The notes under the pieces: generated by a model
What the model was told of the DNA's origin: nothing
Databases searched by the model: none
The model's input: the letters and a program-made list of their open reading frames with translations, nothing else
Position numbers and translations under genes: made by a program
Assembly: GCA_963716375.1 (NCBI GenBank)
Contig: OY970306.1
Location: 2,421,228 to 2,485,227 of the forward strand
Source: an uncultured Chloroflexia bacterium
GTDB lineage: Bacteria > Chloroflexota > Limnocylindria > Limnocylindrales > CSP1-4
Direction of reading: 5' to 3'
Length of the DNA stretch: 64,000 bases
In this document: positions 25,051 through 37,987 of the stretch, piece after piece
How the letters are laid out: each line of letters starts with the position of its first letter
Position numbering within the stretch: the first letter of the stretch is position 1

Positions 25051-26229
25051 CTAGAGCGGCGGCCGCAGGTCCTCTGTATCCGACGGATCCGCCGGATCCG
25101 CCGGATCGTCGAAGTCGCGGCCCGGACCGGGCGCCCCGGCCGGTTCGTTGAAGAGGCTCGTCAGGTCGTCCGAATCCGCGGGCGGAACCCCGCCGGGGCC
25201 CAGCGGCGTGATCGAGGTGGCAGCCGGGGCGGCGGGCGGATACGTCGGCGGGAGCGGGCTCATCACCGGCGGTGCAGATGGCGAATCGGCCGGCCCAGGC
25301 GCCGCCCCTGCCGCAGCGGCAGTCGGCCCGCCCGATCCATCGCCGGTGCCGCTCGATCCCGATGACGAGGCTGCCGCGGTCACGGCGGCCGCGCCGGCGA
25401 TGGGCGCGGCGTACGGACTCCGCCCCGGAGGTACCGTCGAGCCGCCCGTCATGGCCGGGTCGCCGCCCGTCGAACCGCCCGCAGCCGCGCCGCCCGTTCC
25501 GGCACCGCCCGCAGCTGCGCCGCCCGCCGGCGGACCACCCGCCGAACCGCCGCCCGTCGAACTACCGGAACCAGGTGGCGGCGGCGTCCGCTGTCGCACG
25601 AGGACGAGGCCGACGATGGCGGCCACGATCAGTGTCAGGACGGCCAACGGAAGGAGCGGCACCCCGGAACTGCCGGCCGGCGTGCCGGTTCCCGAGCCAC
25701 TCGCCGAAGGCGCGGCAGACGTGGTCGGTTTCGCGGTCGGCTTGGCCGTCGGCGAGGCGGTCGGGGTGGGGGTCGGACTGGCGGTGGGCTGAGCGGACCC
25801 GGACTCGCTCGGCGCCGTGCTTGCCGCCGCGGAGCCCGAGGGCTCGACCGATGCCGTCGGCTTGGCGGTCGGTTTCGCGGTCGGCTTGGCCGTCGGTTTC
25901 GCGGTCGGCTTGGCCGTCGGTTTCGCGGTCGGCTTGGCCGTCGGTCGCGGCGAGCGCGTCGGTCGCGGCGAGCGCGTCGGTCTGGCGCTCGACACGGCCG
26001 AGGAGGACGGCCCGGCGCTCTGGGAAGCCCCGCCTGTCGGCCCGGCACTCGATCCCGGGCTGCCAAGGCTGGGCCGAAGGCTGGCCAGGCCGGAGCCCAC
26101 GCCGGACGGCAGATTCGACGCTGACGGAGTCCCACCGCAGGCGGCCACGAAGATCGCGAGGATCAGGAACGCCAGCCCGAGCAGCGCGGTGTGACCACGG
26201 TTGTTTCGCATGCGATGTGAGTCTCCCAT
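25051..26229 (-). CDS. Lipoprotein with (PTAK)n and (PTRSPR) repeats, one TM helix and a Gly/Ala/Pro-rich cytoplasmic tail
   Basis: Lipobox LAIFVAAC|GG. The protein carries 8x PTAK encoded by 12/24-bp DNA tandem repeats (25855-25990), a TM segment LLPLAVLTLIVAAIVGLVLV, and a low-complexity tail. Confidence 0.6.
   Translation of the reverse strand: MGDSHRMRNNRGHTALLGLAFLILAIFVAACGGTPSASNLPSGVGSGLASLRPSLGSPGSSAGPTGGASQSAGPSSSAVSSARPTRSPRPTRSPRPTAKPTAKPTAKPTAKPTAKPTAKPTAKPTASVEPSGSAAASTAPSESGSAQPTASPTPTPTASPTAKPTAKPTTSAAPSASGSGTGTPAGSSGVPLLPLAVLTLIVAAIVGLVLVRQRTPPPPGSGSSTGGGSAGGPPAGGAAAGGAGTGGAAAGGSTGGDPAMTGGSTVPPGRSPYAAPIAGAAAVTAAASSSGSSGTGDGSGGPTAAAAGAAPGPADSPSAPPVMSPLPPTYPPAAPAATSITPLGPGGVPPADSDDLTSLFNEPAGAPGPGRDFDDPADPADPSDTEDLRPPL
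25855..25990. repeat. In-frame tandem DNA repeats (24-bp unit CTTGGCCGTCGGTTTCGCGGTCGG x about 3.5, then 18-bp unit x2) inside lipoprotein gene
   Basis: Seen directly in the sequence. The repeats encode the PTAK and PTRSPR repeats. Confidence 0.85.
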
Positions 26230-26534
26230 CCCGATCTCAGGGGTCCGATGGTGTTGGCGGCCGGCAGACTCGCGGCAGCCCCACCAGTCTGCGCCACACG
26301 CAGGCCGACTGGAACGCCGTGCCGCCTTGCTGACGCCTGGGACGGCGCTAATGGTTCGGGCGTTTCTCCGGGACGTGCCCGTGCGCCCCGGATCGTCGTT
26401 CTCGACCGTGGGCCCATCGCCGCGGGTTCACCCGCTCGGGATGAGGCACGGCGGCCGCATCGGCCGGATGCTCACGGTCTGCTGCCTCACGGCAGCCGTG
26501 ATCGGCGGGAGGCGCCGCCGATGGAGGACGACCG

Positions 26535-27089
26535 ATGCTCCGATCACGAGCGCGCGGCGTCGGCTCCCAGCCCGATCGACTCGAGCCCGCCCCCGATTCA
26601 CCGGGTGCGGCGTCCACCTACCAGGTGCGCGCCCGGATGCTCGCGATCGGCACGGACTACTGGATCGAGGATGCCGCGCGCCGGCGGACCTTCGTGATCG
26701 ATGGCCCGGCCATGCAGGCCCGTCGCATGCTCGTCATGCGGGACTCGATGGGCGTGGAGCGGTTCCGGGTTCCGATGCGCCCGACCGGCCTCCCTGATTC
26801 GTTCGCGATCGAGCATGCCGGTGACGTGGTGGCGCGCGTCGTCCGTTCGATGACCTCGCCCCTTCGCGAACAGTTCGGGGTGGATCTGGCGGCGGGCGGG
26901 TCCTGGAGCGTGGCCGGCAGCATCGGGGATCACGAATATGAGATCGACGGACCGGTGGGGCGGGTCGCGACGGTCTCGAGGCGATGGTTCCATGTCGCCG
27001 ACAGCTACGGGGTGGCCATTGCGCCCGGTGAGGATGACGCCCTTGTGCTGGCCGTCGGAATCGTCGTGGACGAACTGGTCCGCCGCTGA
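26535..27089 (+). CDS. LURP-one-related / DUF567 (tubby C-terminal-like) family protein; start uncertain (26535 or about 26636)
   Basis: ...YQVRARMLAIGTDYWIEDAARRRTFVIDG... matches the N-terminal Y.V..k..s.gddy.IeD pattern of the family. Confidence 0.45.
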   Translation: MLRSRARGVGSQPDRLEPAPDSPGAASTYQVRARMLAIGTDYWIEDAARRRTFVIDGPAMQARRMLVMRDSMGVERFRVPMRPTGLPDSFAIEHAGDVVARVVRSMTSPLREQFGVDLAAGGSWSVAGSIGDHEYEIDGPVGRVATVSRRWFHVADSYGVAIAPGEDDALVLAVGIVVDELVRR

Positions 27090-27152
27090 CGATCCCGCGG
27101 GCCGATGCCGCAACCGGATCCCGAACGGCGCGACCCGCCGAGGTCGGACGCC

Positions 27153-27578
27153 TTAGCCGCGGCGAACGACGACGCTCTTGCGCCGATCAGGCAGGGGCGC
27201 GGGAATTGCCGGCGCCGACCCGTGCTCGGGCGGCTCGCCGCTGAGTTCGAGTTCGGCCTCGATGTCGTAGCCGAGGCCGAGTGCGAGCTTGGGCGCGCCG
27301 TCCACGATCAGCGCCGAGCCCACGATGGGGGCCACGGCGATCAGCGCGTCCACGAGTTCGGTCGGGGTAGCGCCGGAAGCCAGGCCGACCGAGACGGCCC
27401 TGGCGAAGGCGGCGTGCGGCCCACCCAGGGCGACCAGTGCACCGAGCCTGACCAGCGCCGTCACGCGGGGATCCAGGCACCCCGAGACGTCCGATGCGCC
27501 GCCCGGCCCGAGAATCTGTTCGAGCAGACGGTCATCGCTGAGGGCGAGGCGTCTGAGCTTCTCTTCGTAGCCGTCCAC
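27153..27578 (-). CDS. Carboxymuconolactone decarboxylase family protein (AhpD-like core)
   Basis: A 141-aa protein with CMD-domain helices and the conserved ...GATPTELVDALIAVAPIVG... Confidence 0.65.
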   Translation of the reverse strand: MDGYEEKLRRLALSDDRLLEQILGPGGASDVSGCLDPRVTALVRLGALVALGGPHAAFARAVSVGLASGATPTELVDALIAVAPIVGSALIVDGAPKLALGLGYDIEAELELSGEPPEHGSAPAIPAPLPDRRKSVVVRRG

Positions 27579-27934
27579 CTGGTTCCTCCCGCCCCGACGC
27601 GCGGGGCGCCGCTTGTCCGTCTCGTCTCAACGCGAGCAGGCGGAGTGGTCGATCGAAGGTCGCGCCGGGCGACGGCTCGGGGCGAACCGGCCGCCCGATG
27701 CGGGCACGCATCCCGATCGGCCGGGACGCTGGGCCATCGGGGCGATGAAAGCGACACGTTGCCGCCGGGGCGGTCCCGCGGCGGCCGATCGGCAGCCGAT
27801 CCGGGTTGGTCGGCCCGGACCCGGTCGAACGTCTCGGCCGGATCCCGGGCACTGGTCGGTCGGTCAGGGCACCTCGGGATGCCGTGGCCTCCGTCCGAAG
27901 CGGGGACGGATCCGCTGGGCCAGGACCAATTCGC

Positions 27935-28426
27935 TCAGGCGAGCGCCTTGGCCTTCAGGGTCTGGTACTCGGCCTCCGTGATGGCCCCGGAAGCGCGCAG
28001 CGCCTGAAGCTTGGCGATCTCGTCGGCCGTCGAGGTCGTGGCCATCGGCGCCGTCGCCGCGCTGGCAGCCGTCGGACTGGCGCTTACGCCGCCCGGCATG
28101 GGCTCGTTCTTGAGCGAGCTCTGGCGGGAGATGATGTAGACCAGCGCGCCCAGGAACGGGAGAATCACGATCGCGATGATCCAGATCGCCTTGAGCCCGC
28201 CGCTGATGTCATGCCGCCGGATGATGTCCGCGAAGATCGCGATGAAGATCCAGATCAGCAGGAAGATGAAGTAGAAGACGATCATCCCCCAGATGACGTC
28301 CCAGAACGTCAGCGTGCTCGTGCCGACGCTGGAGCAGCCCGCGAGCAGCAGCGGCGCCGCGATGACCAGCAGCGCGAGGCCGCGCACCCACGGTGTGCGG
28401 AACGGCGCCATCAATTGAGCGACCAT
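27935..28426 (-). CDS. Membrane lipoprotein with PLD-nuclease/cardiolipin-synthase N-terminal (PLDc_N) TM domain and C-terminal SHOCT domain
   Basis: The start MVAQLMAPF was chosen; the 260-aa track ORF has a non-protein-like N-terminus. Lipobox LLLAGC|SS. The PLDc_N TM pair is FWDVIWGMIVFYFIFLLIWIFIAIFADIIRR...AIWIIAIVILPFLGALVYII. The SHOCT domain is ADEIAKLQALRASGAITEAEYQTLKAKAL. Confidence 0.65.
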   Translation of the reverse strand: MVAQLMAPFRTPWVRGLALLVIAAPLLLAGCSSVGTSTLTFWDVIWGMIVFYFIFLLIWIFIAIFADIIRRHDISGGLKAIWIIAIVILPFLGALVYIISRQSSLKNEPMPGGVSASPTAASAATAPMATTSTADEIAKLQALRASGAITEAEYQTLKAKALA

Positions 28427-28620
28427 GAAGCTTCTCCTCCAGCTGTGACCCCATCGGCTCCGAGCGGAGCGACGAACCGGGACGCGGGACGCCGTCCCAT
28501 CCAGCCGATCGTGGTCCCCGGCCGCACGGTCATCATCACCCGCACCGGATGAGGCCAGTGCCGGTCCGCGACCCGGCCCGCCGAATTCGGCCGCCGACCG
28601 AGTCCCGCCGGTGGCGCCGG

Positions 28621-29277
28621 TCAGGAGAACATGTACTTGGCGCGATCGATGCTGGCCGCCGTGCGGCCCATGGACTGGTACTGGTAGCCCACCCCGATCA
28701 CGGCCACGACAACCCACAGGATGACCGCCAGCGGGTGATTGAGGACGTTGGACACCGCGCCGCCACGACCCATCTGGTCAACCGTGATCTGGCCGAGCAG
28801 GATGAAGGCGCCCGCCGCGACGTAGACTCCGCCGCCGATGGAGCTGAGCAGGATCACGAGGAGCGCCGGGGCATTGAGGACAAGGACGCCCACGGCGAAG
28901 ACGAGCCCGACGCCGGCTCCGACGACGAACGACAGGAGGCCGCTGTCGATACCGAAGAAGGCCATCAGTCCCGTCCCGAGGGTCCAGCCGACGATCCCGC
29001 CGAGCAGGATGATGGCCCCGTAGTAGAAGAAGAACGAGAGGACAGCGAACACGAGCCCGAGGATGACGCCGCCAGCGAGACTGAGGACCGTGCGGAACAA
29101 GCCGTCGCCGAAGATCTCCAGGATCAGCGAGGCGCCGATGAGCATGCCCGTCGCGAAGCCCATCACCGGCAGCAGGAAGAAGAACGCCTTGAACCCGGCA
29201 AAGGTGAACAGCGCCCCAAGGCCGAGCGCCGCGAGTCCCACGATCAGCGTATCGATCAGCATCGGCGTTCTCCCCAC
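28621..29277 (-). CDS. Polytopic membrane protein (DUF4203-like), function unknown
   Basis: A 218-aa protein with about 6 TM helices, rich in Gly/Ala/Leu. It is probably co-transcribed with 27935-28426. Confidence 0.55.
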   Translation of the reverse strand: MGRTPMLIDTLIVGLAALGLGALFTFAGFKAFFFLLPVMGFATGMLIGASLILEIFGDGLFRTVLSLAGGVILGLVFAVLSFFFYYGAIILLGGIVGWTLGTGLMAFFGIDSGLLSFVVGAGVGLVFAVGVLVLNAPALLVILLSSIGGGVYVAAGAFILLGQITVDQMGRGGAVSNVLNHPLAVILWVVVAVIGVGYQYQSMGRTAASIDRAKYMFS

Positions 29278-29450
29278 ATCTGCAGGGCCGGCGGCCCTCC
29301 GCTCCCATGATCGTGTCCGGCGGCCGCGACCGCCGCGTCACCCGGCACGGATGATGCCCGCCGCGTCGCCGTCGTCAAGCATGATGCACGTGCCCGGTTG
29401 AGGGCGATGTCGCGCGCGCCGGTTCCGGACCGTTCCACCCAGCGCGCGCC

Positions 29451-30809
29451 ATGGGAGGAACGATCATGAGGGCACGACTGGGAGGCCTGCGAAGGGCCGC
29501 CGTCCCCGTCGCGGCGGCGGGCGGCGCTGCCGCCCTCGGACTGCGCCTGCGATCCCATCGGAAGGTCGCCTGGCCGACGCCGCCGGGCGGCATCGAAGCC
29601 GACCAGAGCCGCGAGAAGACGGCGGCGATGCTGGCCCAGCCGCGAATCGGCCGGAGCGACCTCGCCATGGGCTTCGCGCCCGCGCTGGCGACGTCGGTCG
29701 AGCCGCTCCTGCACGGTCCCCGCTACTTCCCGCGGATCCTCGAGGACATTGCCGGAGCGAAGGATCACATCCACATCCTGATCTACGGCTACAAGGAAGG
29801 CGACATCGGCCGGACCTTCCTCGAGGCACTGTCGGGCAAGATCCGCGAGGGGGTTGAGGTCCGGATGTCGGTCGATGCCATCGGCAGCGAGATCGACGGC
29901 GGTAGTCGCAAGCTGTATGCCGACCTTCGCGCGGCTGGAGTCCAGATCGTTGCGAATGAAGGACTGGCGACCATTCGCACCGGCCCGCTCGGCAGCCGCA
30001 AGCCCACCCGGCATTGGGACGACTTCCTGCATTTCGACCATCGCAAGATGGTCATCGTCGATGGCCGGGTCGCCTACGTCGGGGGGACCGGGATCGAGGA
30101 TTCGTACACGACCGAGCGGTTCTACGATGTGATGTGCCGCCTGACCGGACCGATCGTCGCCCAGCTCTCGCTGATGTTCCTCGTGACGTGGCGCCATCAC
30201 AACGGCCCGGTCCCCGAGGGCGATCTGCTGCGTTACTTCCCGGCCGACGTGACCGAAGAGGTGCCGGATCTCGCCACGGCGATCCTGGGCACAGTCCTCT
30301 GGAACGTGCCGGGCACCGGTCACCACCCGATCAGCGACGTGATCGAGCAGTCCCTCGAATCGGCCCAGTCCCGGATCGACATCGTCAATCCCTACATCTC
30401 GAACCGGGCCATCCTGGCCGGCCTCGTCGCGGCCGCCCAGCGCGGCGTCGCAGTCCGGCTCGTGGCCCCCGGCGAGCCAACGCCGCCCTACCCGGCCGCG
30501 GCGTTCCGCCACGCCTACCCGGCGCTGCTCGACGCCGGCGCGGAGATCCTCCTCCATCCCCAGATGGCCCACGCCAAGGTGCTCCGGATCGACGATCGCG
30601 TGCTGATCGGCGGCTGCAACCTCGACGACCTGAGCCTGTTCCGCAACAACGAGCTTGACATCCTCTTCGAGGACCCCTCGATGCCGGGCATCGTCGAGCG
30701 CTCGGTGTTCGACGAGCTGATCGGCATGTCCGTGCCCGCCCAGGCTTCGACCGGCTGGCGCACCACCACGTGGGAGGCGCTGATGTCACGCGGATCGAGG
30801 TTCCTGTGA
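29451..30809 (+). CDS. Phospholipase D-family protein with two HKD motifs (cardiolipin synthase/ClsB-like)
   Basis: HKD-1 is HFDHRKMVIVDGRVAYVGGTGIED. HKD-2 is HAKVLRIDDRVLIGGCNLDD. Its overall length (about 450 aa) and flanking motifs match bacterial Cls/PLD enzymes. Confidence 0.8.
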   Translation: MGGTIMRARLGGLRRAAVPVAAAGGAAALGLRLRSHRKVAWPTPPGGIEADQSREKTAAMLAQPRIGRSDLAMGFAPALATSVEPLLHGPRYFPRILEDIAGAKDHIHILIYGYKEGDIGRTFLEALSGKIREGVEVRMSVDAIGSEIDGGSRKLYADLRAAGVQIVANEGLATIRTGPLGSRKPTRHWDDFLHFDHRKMVIVDGRVAYVGGTGIEDSYTTERFYDVMCRLTGPIVAQLSLMFLVTWRHHNGPVPEGDLLRYFPADVTEEVPDLATAILGTVLWNVPGTGHHPISDVIEQSLESAQSRIDIVNPYISNRAILAGLVAAAQRGVAVRLVAPGEPTPPYPAAAFRHAYPALLDAGAEILLHPQMAHAKVLRIDDRVLIGGCNLDDLSLFRNNELDILFEDPSMPGIVERSVFDELIGMSVPAQASTGWRTTTWEALMSRGSRFL

Positions 30810-30828
30810 GCCCGAAGGGTGGCAACCG

Positions 30829-33027
30829 ATGACCACGATCCGGCGCCTCTTCGGCTTCTACGCGCTCCAGTTCCGGATCATCTGGGAGTGGCGGCCGGGC
30901 CCCCGGGCGCTGATCAAGCGCGCCATCCTCTCGTTCCTCATCGCGTTCGTCGCGCTGGCACTCACCGCCGCGATCCTGCCCGGTATCTCCATCGCCGACT
31001 GGCGGACGGTCGCGGCCGCCGTGATCGTGCTGTCGCTCTTCCAGATCCTCGTGCGGCCGGTGGTCCTGGGGTTGCTGGCCGGGGTGTCGGTCATCCTCGT
31101 CGTGATCGCGACGCTGATCTTCCAGGTCCTCGGGTTCTACGTGGTGGCCTGGGCCCTGCCGAACTTCCATCTCAACGGCTTCGTCACGGCGTTCATCGCG
31201 TCGTTCGTGTACGCCTTCTTCGACACGGTCCTCATCTCGATCCTCGCAATTGACCAGGATGATTCGTACTGGGCGACGCTGCTCCAGCAGATCACGGCCC
31301 AGCAGGCCGACGTCATCCACAGCGACGATCCGGGCGTCGTCATCATCCAGATCGACGGCCTGGCGATGCCGATCCTCGCCCACCAGATCCGGGCCGGCCG
31401 CGTGCCATTCATCTCGCGCTGGGTCCGCAGCCGGGAGATGGTCATGGATCCCTGGACGGCGCTCCTGCCATCCCAGACCTCGGCCTCGCAGGCGGGCATC
31501 CTCCACGGCAACAACTCGTTCATCCCGGCGTTCCGCTGGTGGGAGAAGCCCCGCGGCCGGATGCTCGTCTCGAACCACCCGGCCGACGCCATCGAGATCG
31601 TCCGGCGGGCCTCGGATGGCGAGGGCCTGCTATCGAACAACGGAGCGAGCATCGGCAACCTCGTCTCGGGCGATGCCGTCCGCAGCTACATCACGATGGC
31701 CACCATCAAGGACAAGAGCCAGGGTCTCGGCAAGAGCCAGACCTTCCTCTCGTTCTTTGCCAGCCCCACCAACTACCTCCACACGATCATCCTCACGGTC
31801 GGCGAGATGGGCAAGGAGTACGTCCAGGCGCGACGCGCCCGGCGGGCCGGCATCGAACCGAGCATGCACCGTGGCTGGCCATACCCGGTCGCACGCGCGG
31901 CCACGAACGTGACCCTGCGCGCGCTCTCGACGTCGCTCGTAATGGAAGAGATGTTCCACGGCACGCCCGTGATCTACGTCGACTACACCGACTACGACGA
32001 GATCGCCCATCACAGCGGCCCGGAGCGCAGCGAGACGCTCGATGCGCTCGACGGAGTCGACAAGACGATCGCGACGCTCGTCAAGGCCGCCCGCAGCACG
32101 CCCCGGCCGTTCGAGTTCATCGTGCTCTCGGACCACGGCCAGAGCCTTGGCTCGACGTTCCTGCAGCGGTACGGCAAGACCCTCCAGGCTGTCATCTCCG
32201 ACCTGATGGGCGGCGCCAAGGTCCAGGCCGAGGTCACGGCCGGCGACACGTGGGGGCCGTTGAATGCGGTCGTCTCGGAGGCGTCGCAGACGAGCGGCGC
32301 GACCGGCGCCCTGACGCGGCTTGCGTTCGCCTCGCGGACGACGGACGGCGCCATCGACCTCTCGCCGGAGATGACCGTCAGCGCGGAGACCGGCCTCGAG
32401 TTGCCCGAGCTGGTGGTCTGCGCCTCCGGCAACCTGGCCCTGATCTACTTCAGCCGAGTCTCGGGGCGGGTGACCCTCGAGGAAATGGAGAAGCGCTGGC
32501 CGCACCTGGTCGAGGAGCTGGCCCAGCACCCGGGCATCGGCCTCCTGATGGTCCGATCCGCCGAGAAGGGCACGCTCCTGATCGGTCCGGAAGGCGTCCG
32601 CGGGATCGACGAGGAGGTCGCCCCGGAGGTCGATCCGGTCGCGAAGTACGGCGAGCACGCCATCGACGGCCTGCGGCGGGTGGACGGCATGGAGTTCTGC
32701 GGTGACCTCGTCGCGATCAGCCTGCTCGATCCGAGCACCGATGAGGTGGCGGCGTTCGAAGAGCTCATCGGCTCCCATGGCGGACTCGGTGGCCCGCAGA
32801 CGCACCCGTTCGTCCTCCACCCAGCCGAATGGGAGGTCGACGAGCCGATCATCGGCGCGGAGGCGGTCTACCGCCAGATCCGGACGTGGCTGTCCGACAT
32901 CGGCATCGAGCTCGGGCCGGACGGCAAGGGCGCCTCGGCTGCGCCGAAAGCCGCCGCGGGCGCCACGGAAACCGCGGCGGCAGCTCCGGCGGCTGCAGCT
33001 CCGTCCGCGGAGGCGCCGAAGGCCTGA
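30829..33027 (+). CDS. Membrane-anchored type-I phosphodiesterase/nucleotide pyrophosphatase (alkaline-phosphatase superfamily) fused to N-terminal four-TM holin-like (PF04020-type) domain
   Basis: The N-terminal 140 aa form four TM helices resembling the YvlD/phage_holin_4_2 family (ILPGISIADW...ILVRPVVLGL...). The NPP core has ...VIYVDYTDYDEIAHHSGPERSETLDALDGVDKTIATL...FIVLSDHGQS. The C-terminus is Ala-rich. Confidence 0.7.
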   Translation: MTTIRRLFGFYALQFRIIWEWRPGPRALIKRAILSFLIAFVALALTAAILPGISIADWRTVAAAVIVLSLFQILVRPVVLGLLAGVSVILVVIATLIFQVLGFYVVAWALPNFHLNGFVTAFIASFVYAFFDTVLISILAIDQDDSYWATLLQQITAQQADVIHSDDPGVVIIQIDGLAMPILAHQIRAGRVPFISRWVRSREMVMDPWTALLPSQTSASQAGILHGNNSFIPAFRWWEKPRGRMLVSNHPADAIEIVRRASDGEGLLSNNGASIGNLVSGDAVRSYITMATIKDKSQGLGKSQTFLSFFASPTNYLHTIILTVGEMGKEYVQARRARRAGIEPSMHRGWPYPVARAATNVTLRALSTSLVMEEMFHGTPVIYVDYTDYDEIAHHSGPERSETLDALDGVDKTIATLVKAARSTPRPFEFIVLSDHGQSLGSTFLQRYGKTLQAVISDLMGGAKVQAEVTAGDTWGPLNAVVSEASQTSGATGALTRLAFASRTTDGAIDLSPEMTVSAETGLELPELVVCASGNLALIYFSRVSGRVTLEEMEKRWPHLVEELAQHPGIGLLMVRSAEKGTLLIGPEGVRGIDEEVAPEVDPVAKYGEHAIDGLRRVDGMEFCGDLVAISLLDPSTDEVAAFEELIGSHGGLGGPQTHPFVLHPAEWEVDEPIIGAEAVYRQIRTWLSDIGIELGPDGKGASAAPKAAAGATETAAAAPAAAAPSAEAPKA

Positions 33028-33192
33028 GCGGACCCGGCCTGACCAGTGGGCGCCGGGGCCGGTCGTGTCACCGCGGCCGCCGGCAGCCACCCCGCCCGGC
33101 GGTCCATCGGGACCACGGCGTCCGGCTGGCTATACTGGCGGCCCAATGACTGAGACGCCGGCCGTCCTCGTTCCTGCGCCTGAGCGCGCTTC

Positions 33193-33774
33193 GTGAACGC
33201 CGAGTTCAACTGGTGGCTGCTCGTCGTCGGCGTCGTCGCCGGCGCGGGCCTGGCCTGGCTCGTGCTCGGCGACTGGAACCGCAGCGAGGCCGATCTCGAC
33301 GCCCGCGAGCGCGAAGTCGAGGCGGTCTGGATCGCCGATGCGCTGCGGGAGCACAACGCGACCACGGATCCGCTGCTCGTCGAGGGCATCCTCAAGCTGC
33401 ATCGCGACTACCTCACCCTCGCCTCACCGGCCGACGACTGGATGATCGAGGCCGACGGCATGGCGGATCTCGACGACGACTGGGATGCCAGCGACCAGGC
33501 CGTGGTGGACGCCGCGGACAGCTCGTGGGTCGCGGGCGGCCATCGATCCATTCGTGACGGAGGCGCCTCGATTCGAGCCACGGACAGCGAGGCCGTCAGC
33601 TCTGCGCCGCGGACGGTGGCCGTGGCAGCCACGCCGCGAGACGCGGACCTGCCGGCCGCGATAGCCGACAACGGCGCGGGCCACGACGACCCGGACGATC
33701 CGCAACTCGAACTGGACCTGGATCCGCCGGCCAACCCGGCCGGTTCCGCGGCGGCGTACGACCCGGAATCGTAA
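33193..33774 (+). CDS. Hypothetical membrane-anchored acidic protein
   Basis: A GTG start, an N-terminal TM WWLLVVGVVAGAGLAWLVL, then an Asp/Glu-rich region. No recognisable domain. Confidence 0.4.
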   Translation: MNAEFNWWLLVVGVVAGAGLAWLVLGDWNRSEADLDAREREVEAVWIADALREHNATTDPLLVEGILKLHRDYLTLASPADDWMIEADGMADLDDDWDASDQAVVDAADSSWVAGGHRSIRDGGASIRATDSEAVSSAPRTVAVAATPRDADLPAAIADNGAGHDDPDDPQLELDLDPPANPAGSAAAYDPES

Positions 33775-33784
33775 GCGGCCCGGC

Positions 33785-34744
33785 TCAGGTCTCCTGGCCG
33801 GCAGGCCGGAGGCTCGCCCGATCCACGGAGCCCGCGTGCTCATCCGGCCCAGCGGGCCGATCCGGCCGATGCGCCCGGGCGGCCATCGTCAACTCGTCCA
33901 CGGCCGTCCTCGACGACGCCTGGGCCGCCGTCGCCCCGGCCGCCGCGTCTGAACCCGAGCCCGCGGCCGGCCGGCGGCCGATATGGAGCGCCACGGCTCC
34001 GAGCGCCAGCCGGCGGTACGAGACCTCGACGAGGCCGGCATGCCGCATCGTGGCGGCCAGCTGCCCCGGCGGCGGAAACCCCTTGAGCGAATCCGGCAGA
34101 TAGCGATAGGCCGTCCGGCGCCCGGTCAGGCCGCCGAGGAACGGCGCGGTCCGCCGGAACAGGCCGAGGTAGACCTTCGCCCAGGCCCGTGGGCGGGGCA
34201 TCGACAGCTCGAGGCAGACGACCCAGCCGCCCGGCCGTACCAGGCGCCGCATCTCGCGGAACCCGGCCTCGAAGTCCGGCAGGTTGCGGAGCCCGAAGGC
34301 GATCGTGGCGGCGTCGAACTGGGCGTCCGGGACGGGCACTGCCAGCGCATTGGCCACGATGAAGTCGAGCTGGACGAGGTCGGGGTTCGCGGCTCGAGCC
34401 GCCTCGATCATGCCCGGTGAGAGGTCGACGCCGAGAACCCGGCCGAAGGGCCCGACGCGCAGCGCGAGCTCCTCCGACAGCTTGCCCGTGCCGCAGGCGA
34501 GGTCCACGACGGCGCCACCCGGCTGCAGCCGGGTGGCCGCCACCGCCGCGTGGCGCCAGCCCCGGTCCGAACCGAGCGTCATCACGGTATTCATCCGGTC
34601 GTAGACCGGGGCGATCTCGTCGAACATCGCGGCGACCTGGTCGGCGGGCACAGGATTGCCGGGTCGGGGCTCCTCGGGAGCCCGAGTCGGCCTGATTCGT
34701 CGGCGCAGCCAGCGCATTCGCGGCGGGAATCGCATCATGGTCAT
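33785..34744 (-). CDS. ubiE: Demethylmenaquinone/ubiquinone C-methyltransferase (UbiE/MenG family), with N- and C-terminal extensions
   Basis: ...AAMFDEIAPVYDRMN... plus SAM motif VVDLACGTGKLS, and GWVVCLELS, typical of UbiE/MenG. Confidence 0.75.
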   Translation of the reverse strand: MTMMRFPPRMRWLRRRIRPTRAPEEPRPGNPVPADQVAAMFDEIAPVYDRMNTVMTLGSDRGWRHAAVAATRLQPGGAVVDLACGTGKLSEELALRVGPFGRVLGVDLSPGMIEAARAANPDLVQLDFIVANALAVPVPDAQFDAATIAFGLRNLPDFEAGFREMRRLVRPGGWVVCLELSMPRPRAWAKVYLGLFRRTAPFLGGLTGRRTAYRYLPDSLKGFPPPGQLAATMRHAGLVEVSYRRLALGAVALHIGRRPAAGSGSDAAAGATAAQASSRTAVDELTMAARAHRPDRPAGPDEHAGSVDRASLRPAGQET

Positions 34745-34777
34745 CTTCGCCTACCCGGGGAACAAGGATCGGAGCCC

Positions 34778-35014
34778 ATGACACAGCCAGCCAATCGCTC
34801 AGCCGAGGCCTGCCCCGTCTGCGGCGCCCACGAATTGAGCCTGATCGAGTTTCCCGACATCTCCGGGACCGGCTACCAGGTCATGAACGAATCGATCGGC
34901 ATGGGCGAGCCCGAGCCATCGAGCCAGCCGGGCATCGGCTGCCTGGCGTGCGGCGCCGAGTGGAACGACCTGGCCGCGTTCCGTCGGGGCGCCGACGCGC
35001 GAAATCCCGAGTAG
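34778..35014 (+). CDS. Small zinc-ribbon protein (CxxC...CxxC), hypothetical
   Basis: An internal ATG preceded by AAGGAT. The protein begins MTQPANRSAEACPVCGAHEL and ends ...GCLACGAEWND. The upstream part of the track ORF overlaps ubiE antisense. Confidence 0.4.
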   Translation: MTQPANRSAEACPVCGAHELSLIEFPDISGTGYQVMNESIGMGEPEPSSQPGIGCLACGAEWNDLAAFRRGADARNPE

Positions 35015-35057: not shown

Positions 35058-35996
35058 CTACAGCGTGCCGGCCAGGACCGGATCGGGCGTCGCGAGGGTG
35101 CCGCCGGCATCGCTGAGGCTGACGCCGAAGGTGGAACCCGTGGGGACGTGGGCCAGCAGCGCGACATCGCCGACCCAGTAGGCGATCCCCGTCGGGCTGT
35201 AGAACATCGGCCCGAGCCGCTTGCGCTGGCCATTGATCGCTACCCAGCAGCTGTAGGTCTGGCCGAGCGTCGGTTGGGCGAGCCCGTCCGCCACGGCGAC
35301 CATCTCACCGCTGCTGGGGGAGAACTCGAGCACGCCGCGGGCGGCCGCATCCGTTGCCGACGTCAGGACGACACGCGTCGAATCCGGCTGGGCGGCGATC
35401 CGGATGCTCCACTGGGCGACCTGGGCGAGAGCGGCCGAATCGGCCGTCCGGGGCAGGTCGTCGGCGTCCCGACGGCTGACGACGATCCCGGCCGTCAGGG
35501 TCACCGCGATCAGCACGATCGCGGCCGTGGCCACGATCCAGGTGAGCGCGGGCGAACCCGGCCGCAGCGCCCCTCCGATCCGCTGGCCGAACGAGCGCCG
35601 GATGAGCGTCGGGGTCGCAGCGACCTGGGGATCGGCTGGGGCCCCGGAGCCGGCCGGCTCGGACGGGGCCATCGGCGTCACCGCCACGGCGGCGGTAGCC
35701 AGCGCCGGAGCCGCGTCGGCCGCCGCTGCCCCGGTCCCGCGAGGGCGTCCGACGGCACGGACGAACGCGAGCGTCCGATCCTTGAGCTCGGGCGGCGCCT
35801 GCATCCCGATCGTGTCGCGCAGGACCGCGGCGGACTGGCTCAGCCGGACGAATTCGGTGGTGCACTCGCTGCAGCCGGCCAGGTGCCCGGCCACGAGGCC
35901 GGCGTCCGGCGTATCGCCGGCGATCATCCGATCGAGGCCAGCCGGTTCGATGGCCGCAAGCTCGAGCGCTTCGCGAACCTCCGCGTGGCTGATCAT
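35058..35996 (-). CDS. Anti-sigma factor, ZAS-type (RskA/anti-sigma-K-like): N-terminal zinc-binding domain, TM helix, extracytoplasmic domain
   Basis: HLAGCSECTTE (HxxxCxxC), TM helix LTWIVATAAIVLIAVTLTAGIVV, and a C-terminal anti-sigma-K domain. Its start overlaps the sigma-factor stop (ATGA). Confidence 0.75.
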   Translation of the reverse strand: MISHAEVREALELAAIEPAGLDRMIAGDTPDAGLVAGHLAGCSECTTEFVRLSQSAAVLRDTIGMQAPPELKDRTLAFVRAVGRPRGTGAAAADAAPALATAAVAVTPMAPSEPAGSGAPADPQVAATPTLIRRSFGQRIGGALRPGSPALTWIVATAAIVLIAVTLTAGIVVSRRDADDLPRTADSAALAQVAQWSIRIAAQPDSTRVVLTSATDAAARGVLEFSPSSGEMVAVADGLAQPTLGQTYSCWVAINGQRKRLGPMFYSPTGIAYWVGDVALLAHVPTGSTFGVSLSDAGGTLATPDPVLAGTL

Positions 35997-36688
35997 CGGT
36001 TCGTCTCGTCGGTTCGGTCGGTGGCGGGCACGGCGACGAGTCGCAGCGACGGCGGTTCCGGCCCGAAGGTTGGGCCAAGTGCCTCGCGCAGGTGCAGCAG
36101 GGCACGCCGGGTGCGGGTCTTGACCGTGCCCAGCGGCCAGCCGAGCCGCTCAGCGATCTCCGATTGCGTCAGCTGGTCGCGGTAGGCCATCAGGATCACG
36201 GTGCGCTCGGTTTCCGGCATCTCGTCGAGGGCCGAACGGATCGCCTCGCGGGTCTCCAGCGACTCGAGCTCGCCTTCCGGGCCGCGCCCGAGATCGGCGC
36301 CCCCGACGACCGTTCCGGCCACGCTGACCCGTTCGAGGGTCGCGCCATCGGCCTCATCTTCGTGGCTGATCGATGAGATCGGCACCAGGCGCGGGCGCCG
36401 GCCCATCGCGCGGAGCCGGTCCACGGTCCGATTCCGGGCAATCGTGTGCAGCCACGCGGCAAGGGAGCCGGCGGCCGGATCGAAGAGCTCTGCTCGATTC
36501 CACAACGCGAGAAACGTCTCCTGCACCACCTCTTCGGCCACCTGGCGGTCATCCGTCAGGCGGCATGCGGCGGCGTACACGGCATCGCCGTGGCGGTCAT
36601 ACAACTCGGCGAGGGCCGACTCGGAGCCCTGGGCCACCTCGCGAACGAGGGCAACCTCAACCGCCGCCTGGTTTCCGGCACCCGTCAT
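35993..36688 (-). CDS. ECF (extracytoplasmic function) RNA polymerase sigma-70 factor
   Basis: Region 2 is ...LYDRHGDAVYAAACRLTDDRQVAEEVVQETFLALW. Region 4 HTH is ...LTQSEIAERLGWPLGTVKTRTRRAL... Confidence 0.85.
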   Translation of the reverse strand: MTGAGNQAAVEVALVREVAQGSESALAELYDRHGDAVYAAACRLTDDRQVAEEVVQETFLALWNRAELFDPAAGSLAAWLHTIARNRTVDRLRAMGRRPRLVPISSISHEDEADGATLERVSVAGTVVGGADLGRGPEGELESLETREAIRSALDEMPETERTVILMAYRDQLTQSEIAERLGWPLGTVKTRTRRALLHLREALGPTFGPEPPSLRLVAVPATDRTDETNR

Positions 36689-36763
36689 CCGATACGCCGC
36701 CCGCGCCCGATCGGTTCTCGGGCCTGCGCCCGACCCTGGCTGGTCATCGTCGATCCCGGCACC

Positions 36764-37987
36764 CTAGGTCGTCGACACGCCGATGAGGCGCCCGACGAAG
36801 AATGTCACGGTCGCGGCCGCACCGCCGATGGCGACCTGCCGGGCGCCCGAGAACAGCAGGCTTCGGCCGGTGAGAAGGCTCACGGCGGCGCCCACGGCGA
36901 ACAGCGCAACGAGGCTCAGGGCGAGGCTGATGAAGAAGATCGTGGTGCTGCCACCGAACAGGTACGGGACGACGGGCACCGCGGCCCCGGCCGCAAACGC
37001 GACGAACGACCCGAGCGCCGCCTTGATGGGTGAGCCGAGCTCGTTGGGATCGAGGCCGAGCTCCTCTCGAACGAGCGTATCGAGGGCGGTCTTCGGGTCC
37101 GCGAAGATCCGATGGGCGATCCGGGCGGACTCCTCCTCGGTGAAGCCCTTGGAACGGTAGATCCCGCTCAGCTCGGCCTCCTCCTCGGCGGGCATCGCCT
37201 CGAGCTCGGCGCGTTCGAGGCTGATCTGGCGCTCGTACAGCTCGCGCTGCGACTGCATCGAGATGTACTCGCCGGCGGCCATGCTGAACGACCCGGCAAG
37301 GAGGCCGGCGATCCCTGCCAGCAGGATGAACTTCGCGTCACCCGAGGCCCCGGCCACGCCCATCACCAGGGACAGGTTGCTGGTCAGGCCGTCACTCACC
37401 CCGAAGATGACGGCCCGCAGGGTTCCGGACTGGCCGGTCCGATGCCACGACTCGCGGCGGGCGATCTCGGCCGGGGTCGTCCGACCTCGGGGCACGATGG
37501 CCGTGCCGGCCTCGGCGGTTCCGGGGGCAGTGGCAGTTCCGGCGGCCGTGGCGGTGCCGGCGGCCGAGCCGTTCCCCGATGCGGCGTCCTCGCTGGCGGC
37601 GAGTCGCTTCCAGATCTCGGCGTGCTCGCGCTCGTCGGCGGCGATCGCGGCCACTTCCGGCGAGACCTGCCCCGAGTAGATGTCCTCCTCGTCGCCCTCG
37701 AGAGCCTGGACCATGTCGGCCACGGCCCGCGTCCCGAAGGCCCGCGCGAGGGCGACGATGAAGCGGATCCGCATCCGCGGCCGCCCGGCCGGCGGGACGA
37801 TCGCGCCCTGGGATTCGAGCTGGCGGGCCCAGATGTCGGCGTGCCGGCGCTCGTTGCCCGCGATCATCCGGAACGCCTCGGCGCGGCGCGGATCCTTCTC
37901 GATCGTCGACAGGGAGTCATACAGCACGATCGCGTCGCGCTCGAGCTTCAGGTTCGCCAGGCTCTGCTGGACGTCGGCAATGGGCAT
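36764..37987 (-). CDS. Erythrin-VIT1 fusion: N-terminal ferritin-like/rubrerythrin diiron domain + C-terminal VIT1/CCC1 iron-transporter domain (MbfA-like)
   Basis: Two ExxH diiron motifs (ERRHADIW, EREHAEIW), then VIT1 family motifs (GVSDGLTSNLSLVMG, AAGEYISMQSQ) and 5 TM helices. Confidence 0.8.
   Translation of the reverse strand: MPIADVQQSLANLKLERDAIVLYDSLSTIEKDPRRAEAFRMIAGNERRHADIWARQLESQGAIVPPAGRPRMRIRFIVALARAFGTRAVADMVQALEGDEEDIYSGQVSPEVAAIAADEREHAEIWKRLAASEDAASGNGSAAGTATAAGTATAPGTAEAGTAIVPRGRTTPAEIARRESWHRTGQSGTLRAVIFGVSDGLTSNLSLVMGVAGASGDAKFILLAGIAGLLAGSFSMAAGEYISMQSQRELYERQISLERAELEAMPAEEEAELSGIYRSKGFTEEESARIAHRIFADPKTALDTLVREELGLDPNELGSPIKAALGSFVAFAAGAAVPVVPYLFGGSTTIFFISLALSLVALFAVGAAVSLLTGRSLLFSGARQVAIGGAAATVTFFVGRLIGVSTT

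Follow-up and report, generated by a model that had tools for sequence, protein, structure and literature searches.

Recurrent linkage of Cls-like phospholipase D genes and YvlD-anchored phosphodiesterase genes in Limnocylindria and other bacteria, and its possible relation to phospholipid headgroup turnover

Introduction

The question raised by four adjacent genes of an uncultured Chloroflexia bacterium of the Limnocylindrales is whether a phospholipase D (PLD)-like enzyme and a membrane-anchored enzyme of the nucleotide pyrophosphatase/phosphodiesterase (NPP) type act together on the headgroups of membrane phospholipids. The genes, designated g1 to g4, lie within a 64,000-nucleotide (nt) stretch of contig OY970306.1, the whole of which is referred to as the window, and encode a putative small lipoprotein with PLDc_N and SHOCT domains (g1), a polytopic membrane protein (g2), a PLD that resembles cardiolipin synthases (g3) and an NPP-type domain fused to a YvlD anchor (g4). 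An initial annotation of this DNA proposed a dedicated headgroup system comprising all four genes, in which the holin-like anchor of the NPP was unusual and the PLDc_N domain had been split from the PLD. In the comparative analysis reported here, the PLD-linked, membrane-anchored NPP gained support whereas the unusual fusion, the split domain and the four-gene unit did not hold. We propose that g3 and g4 form a two-gene operon for a cytoplasm-facing pair of membrane phosphoesterases that act on phospholipid headgroups, an interpretation to which we assign an even chance of being correct.

Results

Structure and predicted active site of the g4 protein

The g4 protein was found to consist of a YvlD anchor (residues ~25-139), a linker helix, an NPP/PhnA-type domain (~169-690) and a disordered Ala/Pro tail (residues 699-732). 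The anchor matched Phage_holin_4_2 (PF04020) with 46 bits (cut-off 28.8) at residues 31-134, covering model positions 2-105 of 105, and the enzyme domain matched Phosphodiest with 37.2 bits (cut-off 23) at residues 170-440 while the score with Pfam Sulfatase was only 16.6 bits. An AlphaFold2 model of the protein (pLDDT 84.4, pTM 0.85) contained an N-terminal helix, four transmembrane (TM) helices, the linker helix and a large alpha/beta domain, and Foldseek matches of this model included PhnA, SPAP, ENPP5, ENPP6, ENPP7, Xac NPP and PafA, the top matches having E values from 1e-9 to 1e-5 (for PhnA 1ei6, E 1.8e-9 and TM-target 0.57; for ENPP7, TM-target 0.61). A profile of 60 homologues reached solved structures weakly, the best PDB sequence match being Xac NPP with DxxxH and DHG aligned. 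The predicted catalytic set comprises T217 as nucleophile and D176, D390, H394, D435, H436 and H650 as metal ligands, with the motif VLSDHG at 431-436. T217 and the six ligands were invariant in 60 close and 17 distant homologues, the latter at 29-40% identity, and the catalytic Thr and metal ligands on which the initial annotation had made its NPP assignment depend are thus all in place. The modelled domain thus belongs, by Phosphodiest, Foldseek and the bimetallo site, to the alkaline-phosphatase superfamily and there to the NPP branch, in agreement with the initial annotation. No NCBIfam model covered the g4 family, the score of PglZ_4 being 16.7 bits against a cut-off of 140.

The N-terminal 32 residues of g4 contain 7 K/R as opposed to 1 D/E and precede four TM helices, an arrangement that would leave both termini inside the cell, and in a metagenome locus, L095, an anchor of this kind is followed by a UbiB/ABC1 domain, which is ATP-dependent. 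Both features point towards the cytoplasm as the likely location of the NPP domain, a choice that the initial annotation had left between cytoplasm and periplasm. A function of g4 as a phage holin was ruled out by the fusion to an enzyme in a 732-aa protein, by size and by context; the annotated neighbours of g4 included no phage genes and were chromosomal housekeeping or membrane genes.

The combination of holin-like anchor and NPP domain, rather than being unusual, proved to define a large family. A database protein, P0001, was identical to g4, although an exact look-up of g4 in an assembly index gave no match, and a word-indexed search with g4 returned 2,115 significant matches, both Pfam domains being present in all but one of the best 120. 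When 50%-identity representatives were searched exhaustively, 3,814 matches were obtained, 806 of these at E <= 1e-30, so that the fusion is represented by at least 806 such clusters. In most of the best 150 representatives the alignment extended from the TM domain to a C-terminal HGG motif, with identity falling to ~30%, and a search seeded from a Solirubrobacterales member gave 7,680 matches among 8,000 candidates. Family members occur in Chloroflexota, Actinomycetota and other taxa and, since every one is anchored and retains the bimetallo/Thr site, are predicted to be active membrane phosphoesterases. Their database names, "phage holin family protein" or "YvlD (DUF360)", hide the enzyme, and the former is misleading because no phage or lysis context was noted. 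No published study was found, in literature searches that covered YvlD, DUF360, PF04020 and the annotation phrases, of the fusion family, which, with thousands of sequences, is among the larger enzyme families without a studied member.

The Cls-like PLD and its junction with g4

As in cardiolipin synthases (Cls), two HxKxxxxD (HKD) motifs are present in the single polypeptide encoded by g3, both of them intact (HRKMVIVD at 197 and HAKVLRID at 374), and the protein matched PLDc_2 with 103 bits over two stretches as well as PLDc. The true start of g3 is probably the ATG at 29466, behind GGGAGGA, which gives a protein of 447 aa; its database copy, P0271, is also 447 aa. Scores with NCBIfam Cls models were 131 bits for TIGR04265 (cut-off 290), 104 bits for PRK12452 (cut-off 787) and 104 bits for ClsB (cut-off 281), in each case under half of the curated equivalog cut-off. 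Of the description of g3 as a Cls/PLD enzyme with intact HKD motifs, the motifs therefore stand while "Cls" denotes resemblance. That resemblance is to Cls rather than to nucleases, as the initial annotation supposed, the score of NucT being 20 bits as opposed to 131 for TIGR04265, and the DrmC model of PADLOC (43 bits) was also weaker than the Cls models. The N-terminal region typical of ClsA was not seen, there being no PLDc_N match and no convincing TM segment, and hydropathy near the N-terminus not peaking at or above 1.6. Orthologues of g3 at 62-78% identity were common in Limnocylindria, and no PDB relative was detectable by sequence. The junction between g3 and g4 is operon-like, and its short gap with a putative ribosome-binding site (Table 1) suggests co-transcription.

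Linkage of PLD and YvlD-NPP genes

Gene linkage was assessed by tblastn, clustering and iterated hidden Markov models (HMMs) in a total of 167 loci, which comprised 80 genome loci with the closest relatives of g4 (all Chloroflexota), 80 metagenome loci with distant relatives (GC 25-73%) and 7 PLD-anchored loci. PLD orthologues 44-64% identical to g3 were noted within 10 kb of the NPP gene in 16 of the 80 Chloroflexota loci and within two genes of it in 10, arranged as PLD>NPP, as NPP>PLD, divergently or with one or two genes between. Several genomes supplied two or three NPP loci each, and linkage at ~20% of loci therefore fits one linked paralogue per genome; an NPP clade of ~13 loci retained PLD. 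From the opposite direction, a YvlD/NPP gene was within 7 kb of five of the seven PLD orthologues on long contigs, while one of the remaining two, the closest long-contig PLD orthologue, had no NPP but was overlapped at its stop codon by an LPG_synthase_TM gene and the other had neither. PLD was the sole phosphoesterase partner in Limnocylindria loci, where no partners of the metallo-beta-lactamase (MBL), Metallophos or endonuclease/exonuclease/phosphatase (EEP) folds were found. Immediate neighbours of Limnocylindria NPP paralogues were otherwise heterogeneous (DUF2252, 9; ion channels, 8; DUF1269, 6), and most PLD-NPP loci of this class shared a block of suf, Rieske, sigma/anti-sigma, VIT1, AI-2E and RND genes.

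All four families were found together in none of the 80 genome, 80 metagenome or 7 PLD-anchored loci, which removes the basis for a four-gene unit. The subsets that recurred were pairs and one triple, g1 with g3 and g4, in loci L001, L042, L066 and L070. Two further features of PLD/NPP loci in Limnocylindria were noted. The PLD-adjacent YvlD-NPP gene was broken into two or three consecutive open reading frames (ORFs) at L163:2134-4746 and L167:3667-5827, both in metagenome-assembled genomes with long contigs, due either to assembly frameshift errors or to gene decay, and small proteins of the DUF1269, DUF6325 and SHOCT types recurred together with AI-2E transporters in L041, L048, L054, L072, L161-L163 and L167.

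PLD/Cls genes also flanked NPP in at least four lineages unrelated to Limnocylindria, at 48-65% GC. In L100, L115 and L116, a Cls gene (TIGR04265 570 bits, with PLDc_N), a gene for a YaeI/LpxG-like metallophosphoesterase and the NPP gene followed each other on one strand; in L091 a long PLD gene ended 41 nt upstream of NPP; L097 contained NPP, an MBL-fold hydrolase and PLD in that order; and L095 and L099 contained a row of LPG_synthase_TM, PLD, EEP, PLD, YvlD::UbiB/ABC1 and YvlD::NPP. PLD and YvlD-NPP are linked far above chance, in several unrelated lineages.

Partners of other folds were more numerous in the 80 diverse metagenome loci. A Pfam census of 132 immediate neighbours of NPP gave Lactamase_B_2 21 times, Metallophos 8, Exo_endo_phos 7, PLDc_2 2 and LPG_synthase_TM 2, and a phosphoesterase partner was detected within two genes in 34 of the 80 loci with HMMs built for the analysis. 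By type, closely coupled partners numbered 21 for MBL, 9 for Metallophos, 7 for EEP and 9 for PLD out of 80 loci. These counts are lower bounds because the EEP HMM found 2 of the 7 EEP neighbours seen with Pfam; many of the contigs also end close to the NPP gene. Gaps between partner and NPP genes ranged from -93 to +59 nt, with a single exception of 206 nt, and the type of partner tracked NPP phylogeny. Among curated models, the Metallophos partner was most similar to the YaeI phosphodiesterase (110-126 bits) and to LpxG, a UDP-sugar-lipid pyrophosphatase.

Fusions of the family were also noted. P0154, a metagenome protein of 1052 aa, has the domain order LPG_synthase_TM::YvlD::NPP; in P0229 there is an additional Yip1 domain at the C-terminus, and in P0172 YvlD::NPP is preceded by a weak match to MBL. 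MprF-type flippase-like LPG_synthase_TM domains recurred in P0154, at L095:1402-2442, where the gene heads the PLD-EEP-PLD operon, at L164:8332-9480 and at L163:4-1140. Directly upstream of YvlD::NPP at L095:7758-9917 (+) and L099:7717-9873 (+), a YvlD domain was fused N-terminally to a kinase-like domain of the UbiB/ABC1 type (350 bits with TIGR01982), and from this fusion it seems that the "holin" domain serves cytoplasmic enzymes generally as a membrane anchor.

The small membrane proteins encoded by g1 and g2

The g1 protein matched SHOCT with 35 bits (cut-off 27) and PLDc_N with 29.2 bits (cut-off 23.3), has no catalytic domain and is within the ~173-aa size limit of PLDc_N-SHOCT small proteins; the mechanical ORF extends to a GTG at 28717 and overlaps g2. 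It has three hydrophobic segments, and R10, R15 and a hydrophobic core precede the lipobox LAGC at residues 28-31, which agrees with the pattern [LVI][ASTVI][GAS]C at the end of a signal peptide and marks g1 as a predicted lipoprotein. VAGC, LTAC or LAGC was kept in four orthologues, from L001, L042, L066 and L070, and was missing from other PLDc_N-SHOCT paralogues, so that the conserved-lipobox subgroup occurs exactly in the PLD>NPP loci named above and in the window. Genes of the g1 type (PLDc_N-SHOCT) were present in 13 loci, some of them near NPP genes without PLD. An iterated g1 HMM matched 36 ORFs, and these counts were not used as evidence for PLDc_N because many of the ORFs were SHOCT-only. 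Such SHOCT-only proteins directly adjoined NPP in L056, L061, L120 and L138 and lay ~130 nt downstream in L031. PLDc_N-SHOCT is a described stand-alone architecture of at most 173 aa (Eberhardt et al. 2013, PMC3581485), and separation of PLDc_N from PLD is therefore no peculiarity of this locus.

The g2 protein, with six hydropathy peaks, matched Pfam PF13886 (TM7S3_TM198) over 192 of 199 model positions at 25.8 bits (E 1e-5), below the cut-off of 29.2; apart from this sub-cut-off score, the earlier domain assignments were upheld by Pfam. The same model matched two immediate NPP neighbours in the metagenome locus set, down to E 3e-9. Homologues of g2 at 28-40% identity were found in seven other loci, and in six of these (L009, L034, L062, L112, L144 and L135) the gene directly adjoined NPP, mostly divergently. 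An iterated g2 HMM gave 286 matches among raw six-frame ORFs, which were rejected as a drift artefact, since long antisense ORFs in high-GC DNA had joined a g2 homologue to the antisense strand of NPP and ran across the latter; the HMM rebuilt from trimmed envelopes gave 9 true matches. We regard g2 as a neighbour that NPP genes have repeatedly but can do without, whatever role it may have.

Layout of the locus and neighbouring genes

The four ORFs were present as the initial annotation had described them (Table 1). GC content is ~70% across the window, and the closest relatives of window proteins were from Chloroflexota metagenome-assembled genomes labelled Limnocylindrales or "Chloroflexia". 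That g1 to g4 are not chance ORFs follows from coding-type composition, GC3 being 0.82-0.93 and GC2 0.42-0.57, and from the homologues of each in other loci, which for g3 and g4 number hundreds to thousands.

Table 1. Genes and intergenic regions of the locus (positions in the window)
Feature	Position	Strand	Length	Description
g1	27935-28426	-	163 aa from ATG	lipobox–PLDc_N–SHOCT (lipobox predicted)
g2	28621-29277	-	218 aa	polytopic, ~6 TM, TM7S3/TM198 (former DUF4203)-like
g2-g3 intergenic	29278-29450		173 nt	genes divergent; likely promoter region for both
g3	29451-30809	+	452 aa ORF	two-HKD PLD superfamily, ClsB-like
g3-g4 spacer	30810-30828	+	19 nt	Shine-Dalgarno-like GAAGGGTGG ahead of g4 ATG
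g4	30829-33027	+	732 aa	YvlD/Phage_holin_4_2 + NPP/PhnA-type domain

A promoter/terminator scan, uninformative at this high GC, gave a single minus-strand match of the sigma-70 type (29378-29351), where 0.3 was expected, and no terminator-like site between g3 and g4. An Rfam search of 26000-35000, including the g2-g3 intergenic region, found no riboswitch or other element. Each of the four families is represented only once in the 64-kb window, and genes of the MBL, Metallophos, EEP and LPG_synthase_TM types were not found in the rest of it.

On the g1 side, a 184-aa protein encoded at 26535-27089 (+), 850 bp from g1, matched the LURP-one-related (LOR) family with 36 bits; this family is known mostly from plants and has a tubby/scramblase-like fold. 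The LOR protein was conserved in 0 of 80 and 1 of 80 related loci. The gene at 25051-26229 (-) encodes a low-complexity Pro/Ala/Thr/Gly-rich protein of 392 aa with a run of PTAK repeats (Pfam PT repeat, weak) and two hydrophobic segments, one at the N-terminus with a Cys behind it (AACGG) and the other central, and is mirrored on the opposite strand by long spurious ORFs.

On the g4 side, an ORF at 33193-33774 (+), located 165 nt 3' of g4 on the same strand, encodes a protein of 193 aa that has a single TM segment, at the N-terminus, and ends in an acidic tail. It had no Pfam match and is probably outside the module because its weak homologues, in four loci, were ~7 kb away from the NPP gene. 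A UbiE/COQ5-type methyltransferase gene lies just beyond the cluster at 33785-34744 (-), and another directly follows the PLD orthologue of L166 (8346-9134, +), a locus without NPP; the two may reflect residual synteny or a link with quinone or lipid metabolism. Genes at 35058-37987 (-) for an ECF-type sigma factor, an RskA-like anti-sigma factor and a Rubrerythrin-like::VIT1 fusion are part of the syntenic block that accompanies PLD/NPP in other Limnocylindria loci (clusters c33, c21 and c12).

Discussion

The proposal that g3 and g4 act as a pair can be stated as a two-step attack on phospholipids. The g3 protein would be an anchor-less, ClsB-like phosphatidyl-transferase/hydrolase with two HKD motifs, and g4 a bimetallo NPP-type enzyme with Thr217 as nucleophile, held on the membrane by YvlD with its catalytic domain in the cytoplasm. 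In the inner leaflet, the partner enzyme, which is g3 in the window, would cleave or exchange one phosphoester bond, and the NPP enzyme would then cleave the remaining phosphoester, for example releasing inorganic phosphate (Pi) from phosphatidic acid (PA) or a phospho-headgroup, or attacking a CDP- or glycerophospho-diester. Candidate bonds for g4 are thus the monoester of PA or of a phospho-headgroup, a glycerophosphodiester and CDP-diacylglycerol, and the outcome would be turnover or remodelling of glycerophospholipids. Such an attack is favoured because each of the four partner folds has familiar members that are lipid phosphodiesterases, namely PLD/Cls, PlcP-type metallophosphoesterases, sphingomyelinase-type EEP and NAPE-PLD-type MBL enzymes, and because true Cls and MprF-type domains recur. 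The fold of g4 is consistent with a lipid substrate, the NPP/PhnA/PafA branch to which its model belongs including the lipid-cleaving ENPP6 and ENPP7. The g1 protein may be a recurrent accessory membrane protein of PLD>NPP loci that would serve the anchor-less g3 in trans as membrane anchor or regulator, a role suggested by recurrent adjacency, g1 having the membrane module that is part of the enzyme itself in the ClsA type.

Several observations weigh against this proposal. The theme shared by partner enzymes need not be lipids because the MBL, Metallophos, EEP and PLD folds also include nucleases and nucleotide phosphodiesterases; g3 scored well under the curated Cls cut-offs; the segment straight after TM4 of g4 is acidic (0 K/R, 6 D/E), which weakens the topology argument; and searches of the literature and NCBIfam turned up no experimental result on a protein of the YvlD-NPP family. 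Pairing was missing from 64 of 80 Limnocylindria NPP loci and from 2 of 7 PLD orthologue loci, the four-gene set was never repeated, and the co-occurrences in Limnocylindria are not independent because they fall within one broader syntenic block. The last three points are shared with an alternative in which the genes are neighbours by descent, g3 being a housekeeping synthase for remodelling of cardiolipin and phosphatidylglycerol (PG), g4 an unrelated membrane phosphatase, and g1 and g2 unrelated small membrane proteins, all within a slowly decaying block. The suf, Rieske, sigma/anti-sigma, VIT1, AI-2E and RND genes shared by PLD loci and the mixed immediate neighbours of NPP paralogues (DUF2252, ion channels, DUF1269) would also be expected if this were so, and on the Limnocylindria data alone common descent is plausible. 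It is weakened by the occurrence of PLD/Cls beside NPP in at least four unrelated lineages and by the 19-nt gap suggestive of co-transcription, and it does not readily account for the persistence of proximity while order and orientation vary or for the retention of PLD throughout an NPP clade of ~13 loci. Overall, we regard descent as an unlikely explanation.

Two other alternatives accept the linkage but differ in what the NPP enzyme does. YvlD-NPP might act at the membrane on phosphodiesters other than lipids, such as nucleotides, cyclic or linear oligonucleotides, nucleotide-sugars or polyprenyl-PP-linked intermediates, in signalling, salvage or envelope-polymer metabolism, with partners of the nuclease or nucleotide-phosphodiesterase type. 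Classical NPPs hydrolyse nucleotide pyrophosphates, the best PDB sequence match of g4 is one of them (Xac NPP), all four partner folds contain nucleases, the Metallophos partner resembles YaeI and LpxG, and faint similarities to PglZ and DrmC were noted. Against these points, one of the linked PLDs is a genuine Cls (570 bits), g3 scored far better with Cls than with Nuc models, MprF-type flippase-like fusions and operons together with YvlD::UbiB point to lipids, a membrane anchor is obligatory in every family member, and PADLOC gave nothing for g4 or the partners, so that we consider a non-lipid substrate improbable. A part in anti-phage defence, as in BREX (PglZ) or DISARM (DrmC), was ruled out by the PADLOC and NCBIfam results; PADLOC found nothing for g1, g2, g4 or the partner enzymes and a weak DrmC similarity alone for g3, and the neighbouring genes that were annotated included none for defence. 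Alternatively, g4 might be a transferase whose Thr moves a phospho-headgroup, such as glycerol-phosphate or phosphoethanolamine, to a polymer, lipid or protein, with PLD regenerating or supplying the donor lipid. LtaS, EptA (MCR-1) and OpgB combine a polytopic anchor with an alkaline-phosphatase-superfamily domain and a Thr/Ser nucleophile, and use phospholipid headgroups. By analogy, the membrane-anchored g4 with its predicted Thr nucleophile resembles LtaS and EptA, and the links with PG/cardiolipin-type enzymes and flippase-like proteins would match the logic of a donor lipid. However, Foldseek placed g4 in the NPP/PhnA/PafA branch with no LtaS/EptA-type structure among the 50 matches listed, the Sulfatase score was low (see above), the anchor has four TM helices and is of a different family, and the enzyme domain is predicted to be cytoplasmic, unlike those of LtaS and EptA, which work on the outer side of the membrane. 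A transferase is accordingly the reading that we hold to be very improbable.

If the headgroup proposal is extended beyond the window, YvlD-NPP with an interchangeable phosphoesterase (MBL, calcineurin-like, EEP or PLD/Cls), and sometimes with an MprF-type flippase-like protein, could constitute an unrecognised, widespread inner-leaflet pathway for dismantling or remodelling glycerophospholipids, for example with release of Pi and diacylglycerol in phosphorus-sparing remodelling. The window would then represent the PLD variant, with the PLDc_N-SHOCT lipoprotein as the detached anchor of the PLD, and the proposed range of hosts would include Chloroflexota, Actinomycetota and other soil and freshwater bacteria. 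This extension is offered tentatively, as a doubtful conjecture. The comparative data provide the YvlD-NPP family with a testable frame, that of a cytoplasm-facing, membrane-tethered phosphoesterase working with a second phosphoesterase on lipids. If correct, the proposal would add a new route of phospholipid turnover, relevant to phosphorus economy and membrane remodelling, in the abundant and mostly uncultured Limnocylindria and Solirubrobacterales, and would give stand-alone PLDc_N-SHOCT proteins their first functional context. Otherwise, the locus would amount to no more than an orphan phosphatase gene next to a Cls-like one.

Relation to known systems

The g4 protein has the fold branch, bimetallo ligand set and Thr nucleophile of Xac NPP, ENPP2 (autotaxin), ENPP6, ENPP7 and PhnA, as judged from the model and alignments. 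ENPP2, ENPP6 and ENPP7 illustrate that lipid headgroups are cleavable by the NPP fold. Identity of g4 to these NPPs and PhnA is ~10-14%, and g4 has an extra C-terminal elaboration of ~250 residues. It also differs from the NPPs in being anchored by a four-TM YvlD domain, where they have a signal peptide or type-II anchor, and in being predicted to be cytoplasmic rather than extracellular. Residues 31-134 of g4 correspond to the whole 105-position YvlD/DUF360 model, with four TM helices in the structural model, but YvlD-type proteins are ~110 aa and stand alone whereas the domain anchors a 600-aa enzyme in g4 and a UbiB kinase-like domain in L095. Compared with g4, LtaS, EptA and OpgB belong to the sulfatase-like branch and have a five-TM anchor of another family and an extracytoplasmic catalytic domain.

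Like ClsA, ClsB and ClsC, g3 combines two HKD motifs in a single chain, and among curated models it matched those of cardiolipin synthases best; like ClsB and ClsC it is without PLDc_N membrane helices. In contrast with these enzymes, the PLDc_N module of the window is encoded separately, in g1, fused to SHOCT and a putative lipobox. The g1 protein shares architecture and size class with known PLDc_N-SHOCT small proteins (PMC3581485), to which it and its four closest orthologues add a predicted lipoprotein signal and a location beside PLD>NPP. PlcP, of the PlcP-Agt system for lipid remodelling during phosphate starvation, is a metallophosphoesterase-type phospholipase C (PMC9239053). No glycosyltransferase partner like that of this system was seen beside YvlD-NPP, and the partner in the window is a PLD rather than Metallophos. 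In one clade, however, a calcineurin-like phosphoesterase is likewise the closely coupled partner of YvlD-NPP, and the PlcP-Agt logic of stripping phosphate from membrane lipids would fit a module of two phosphoesterases.

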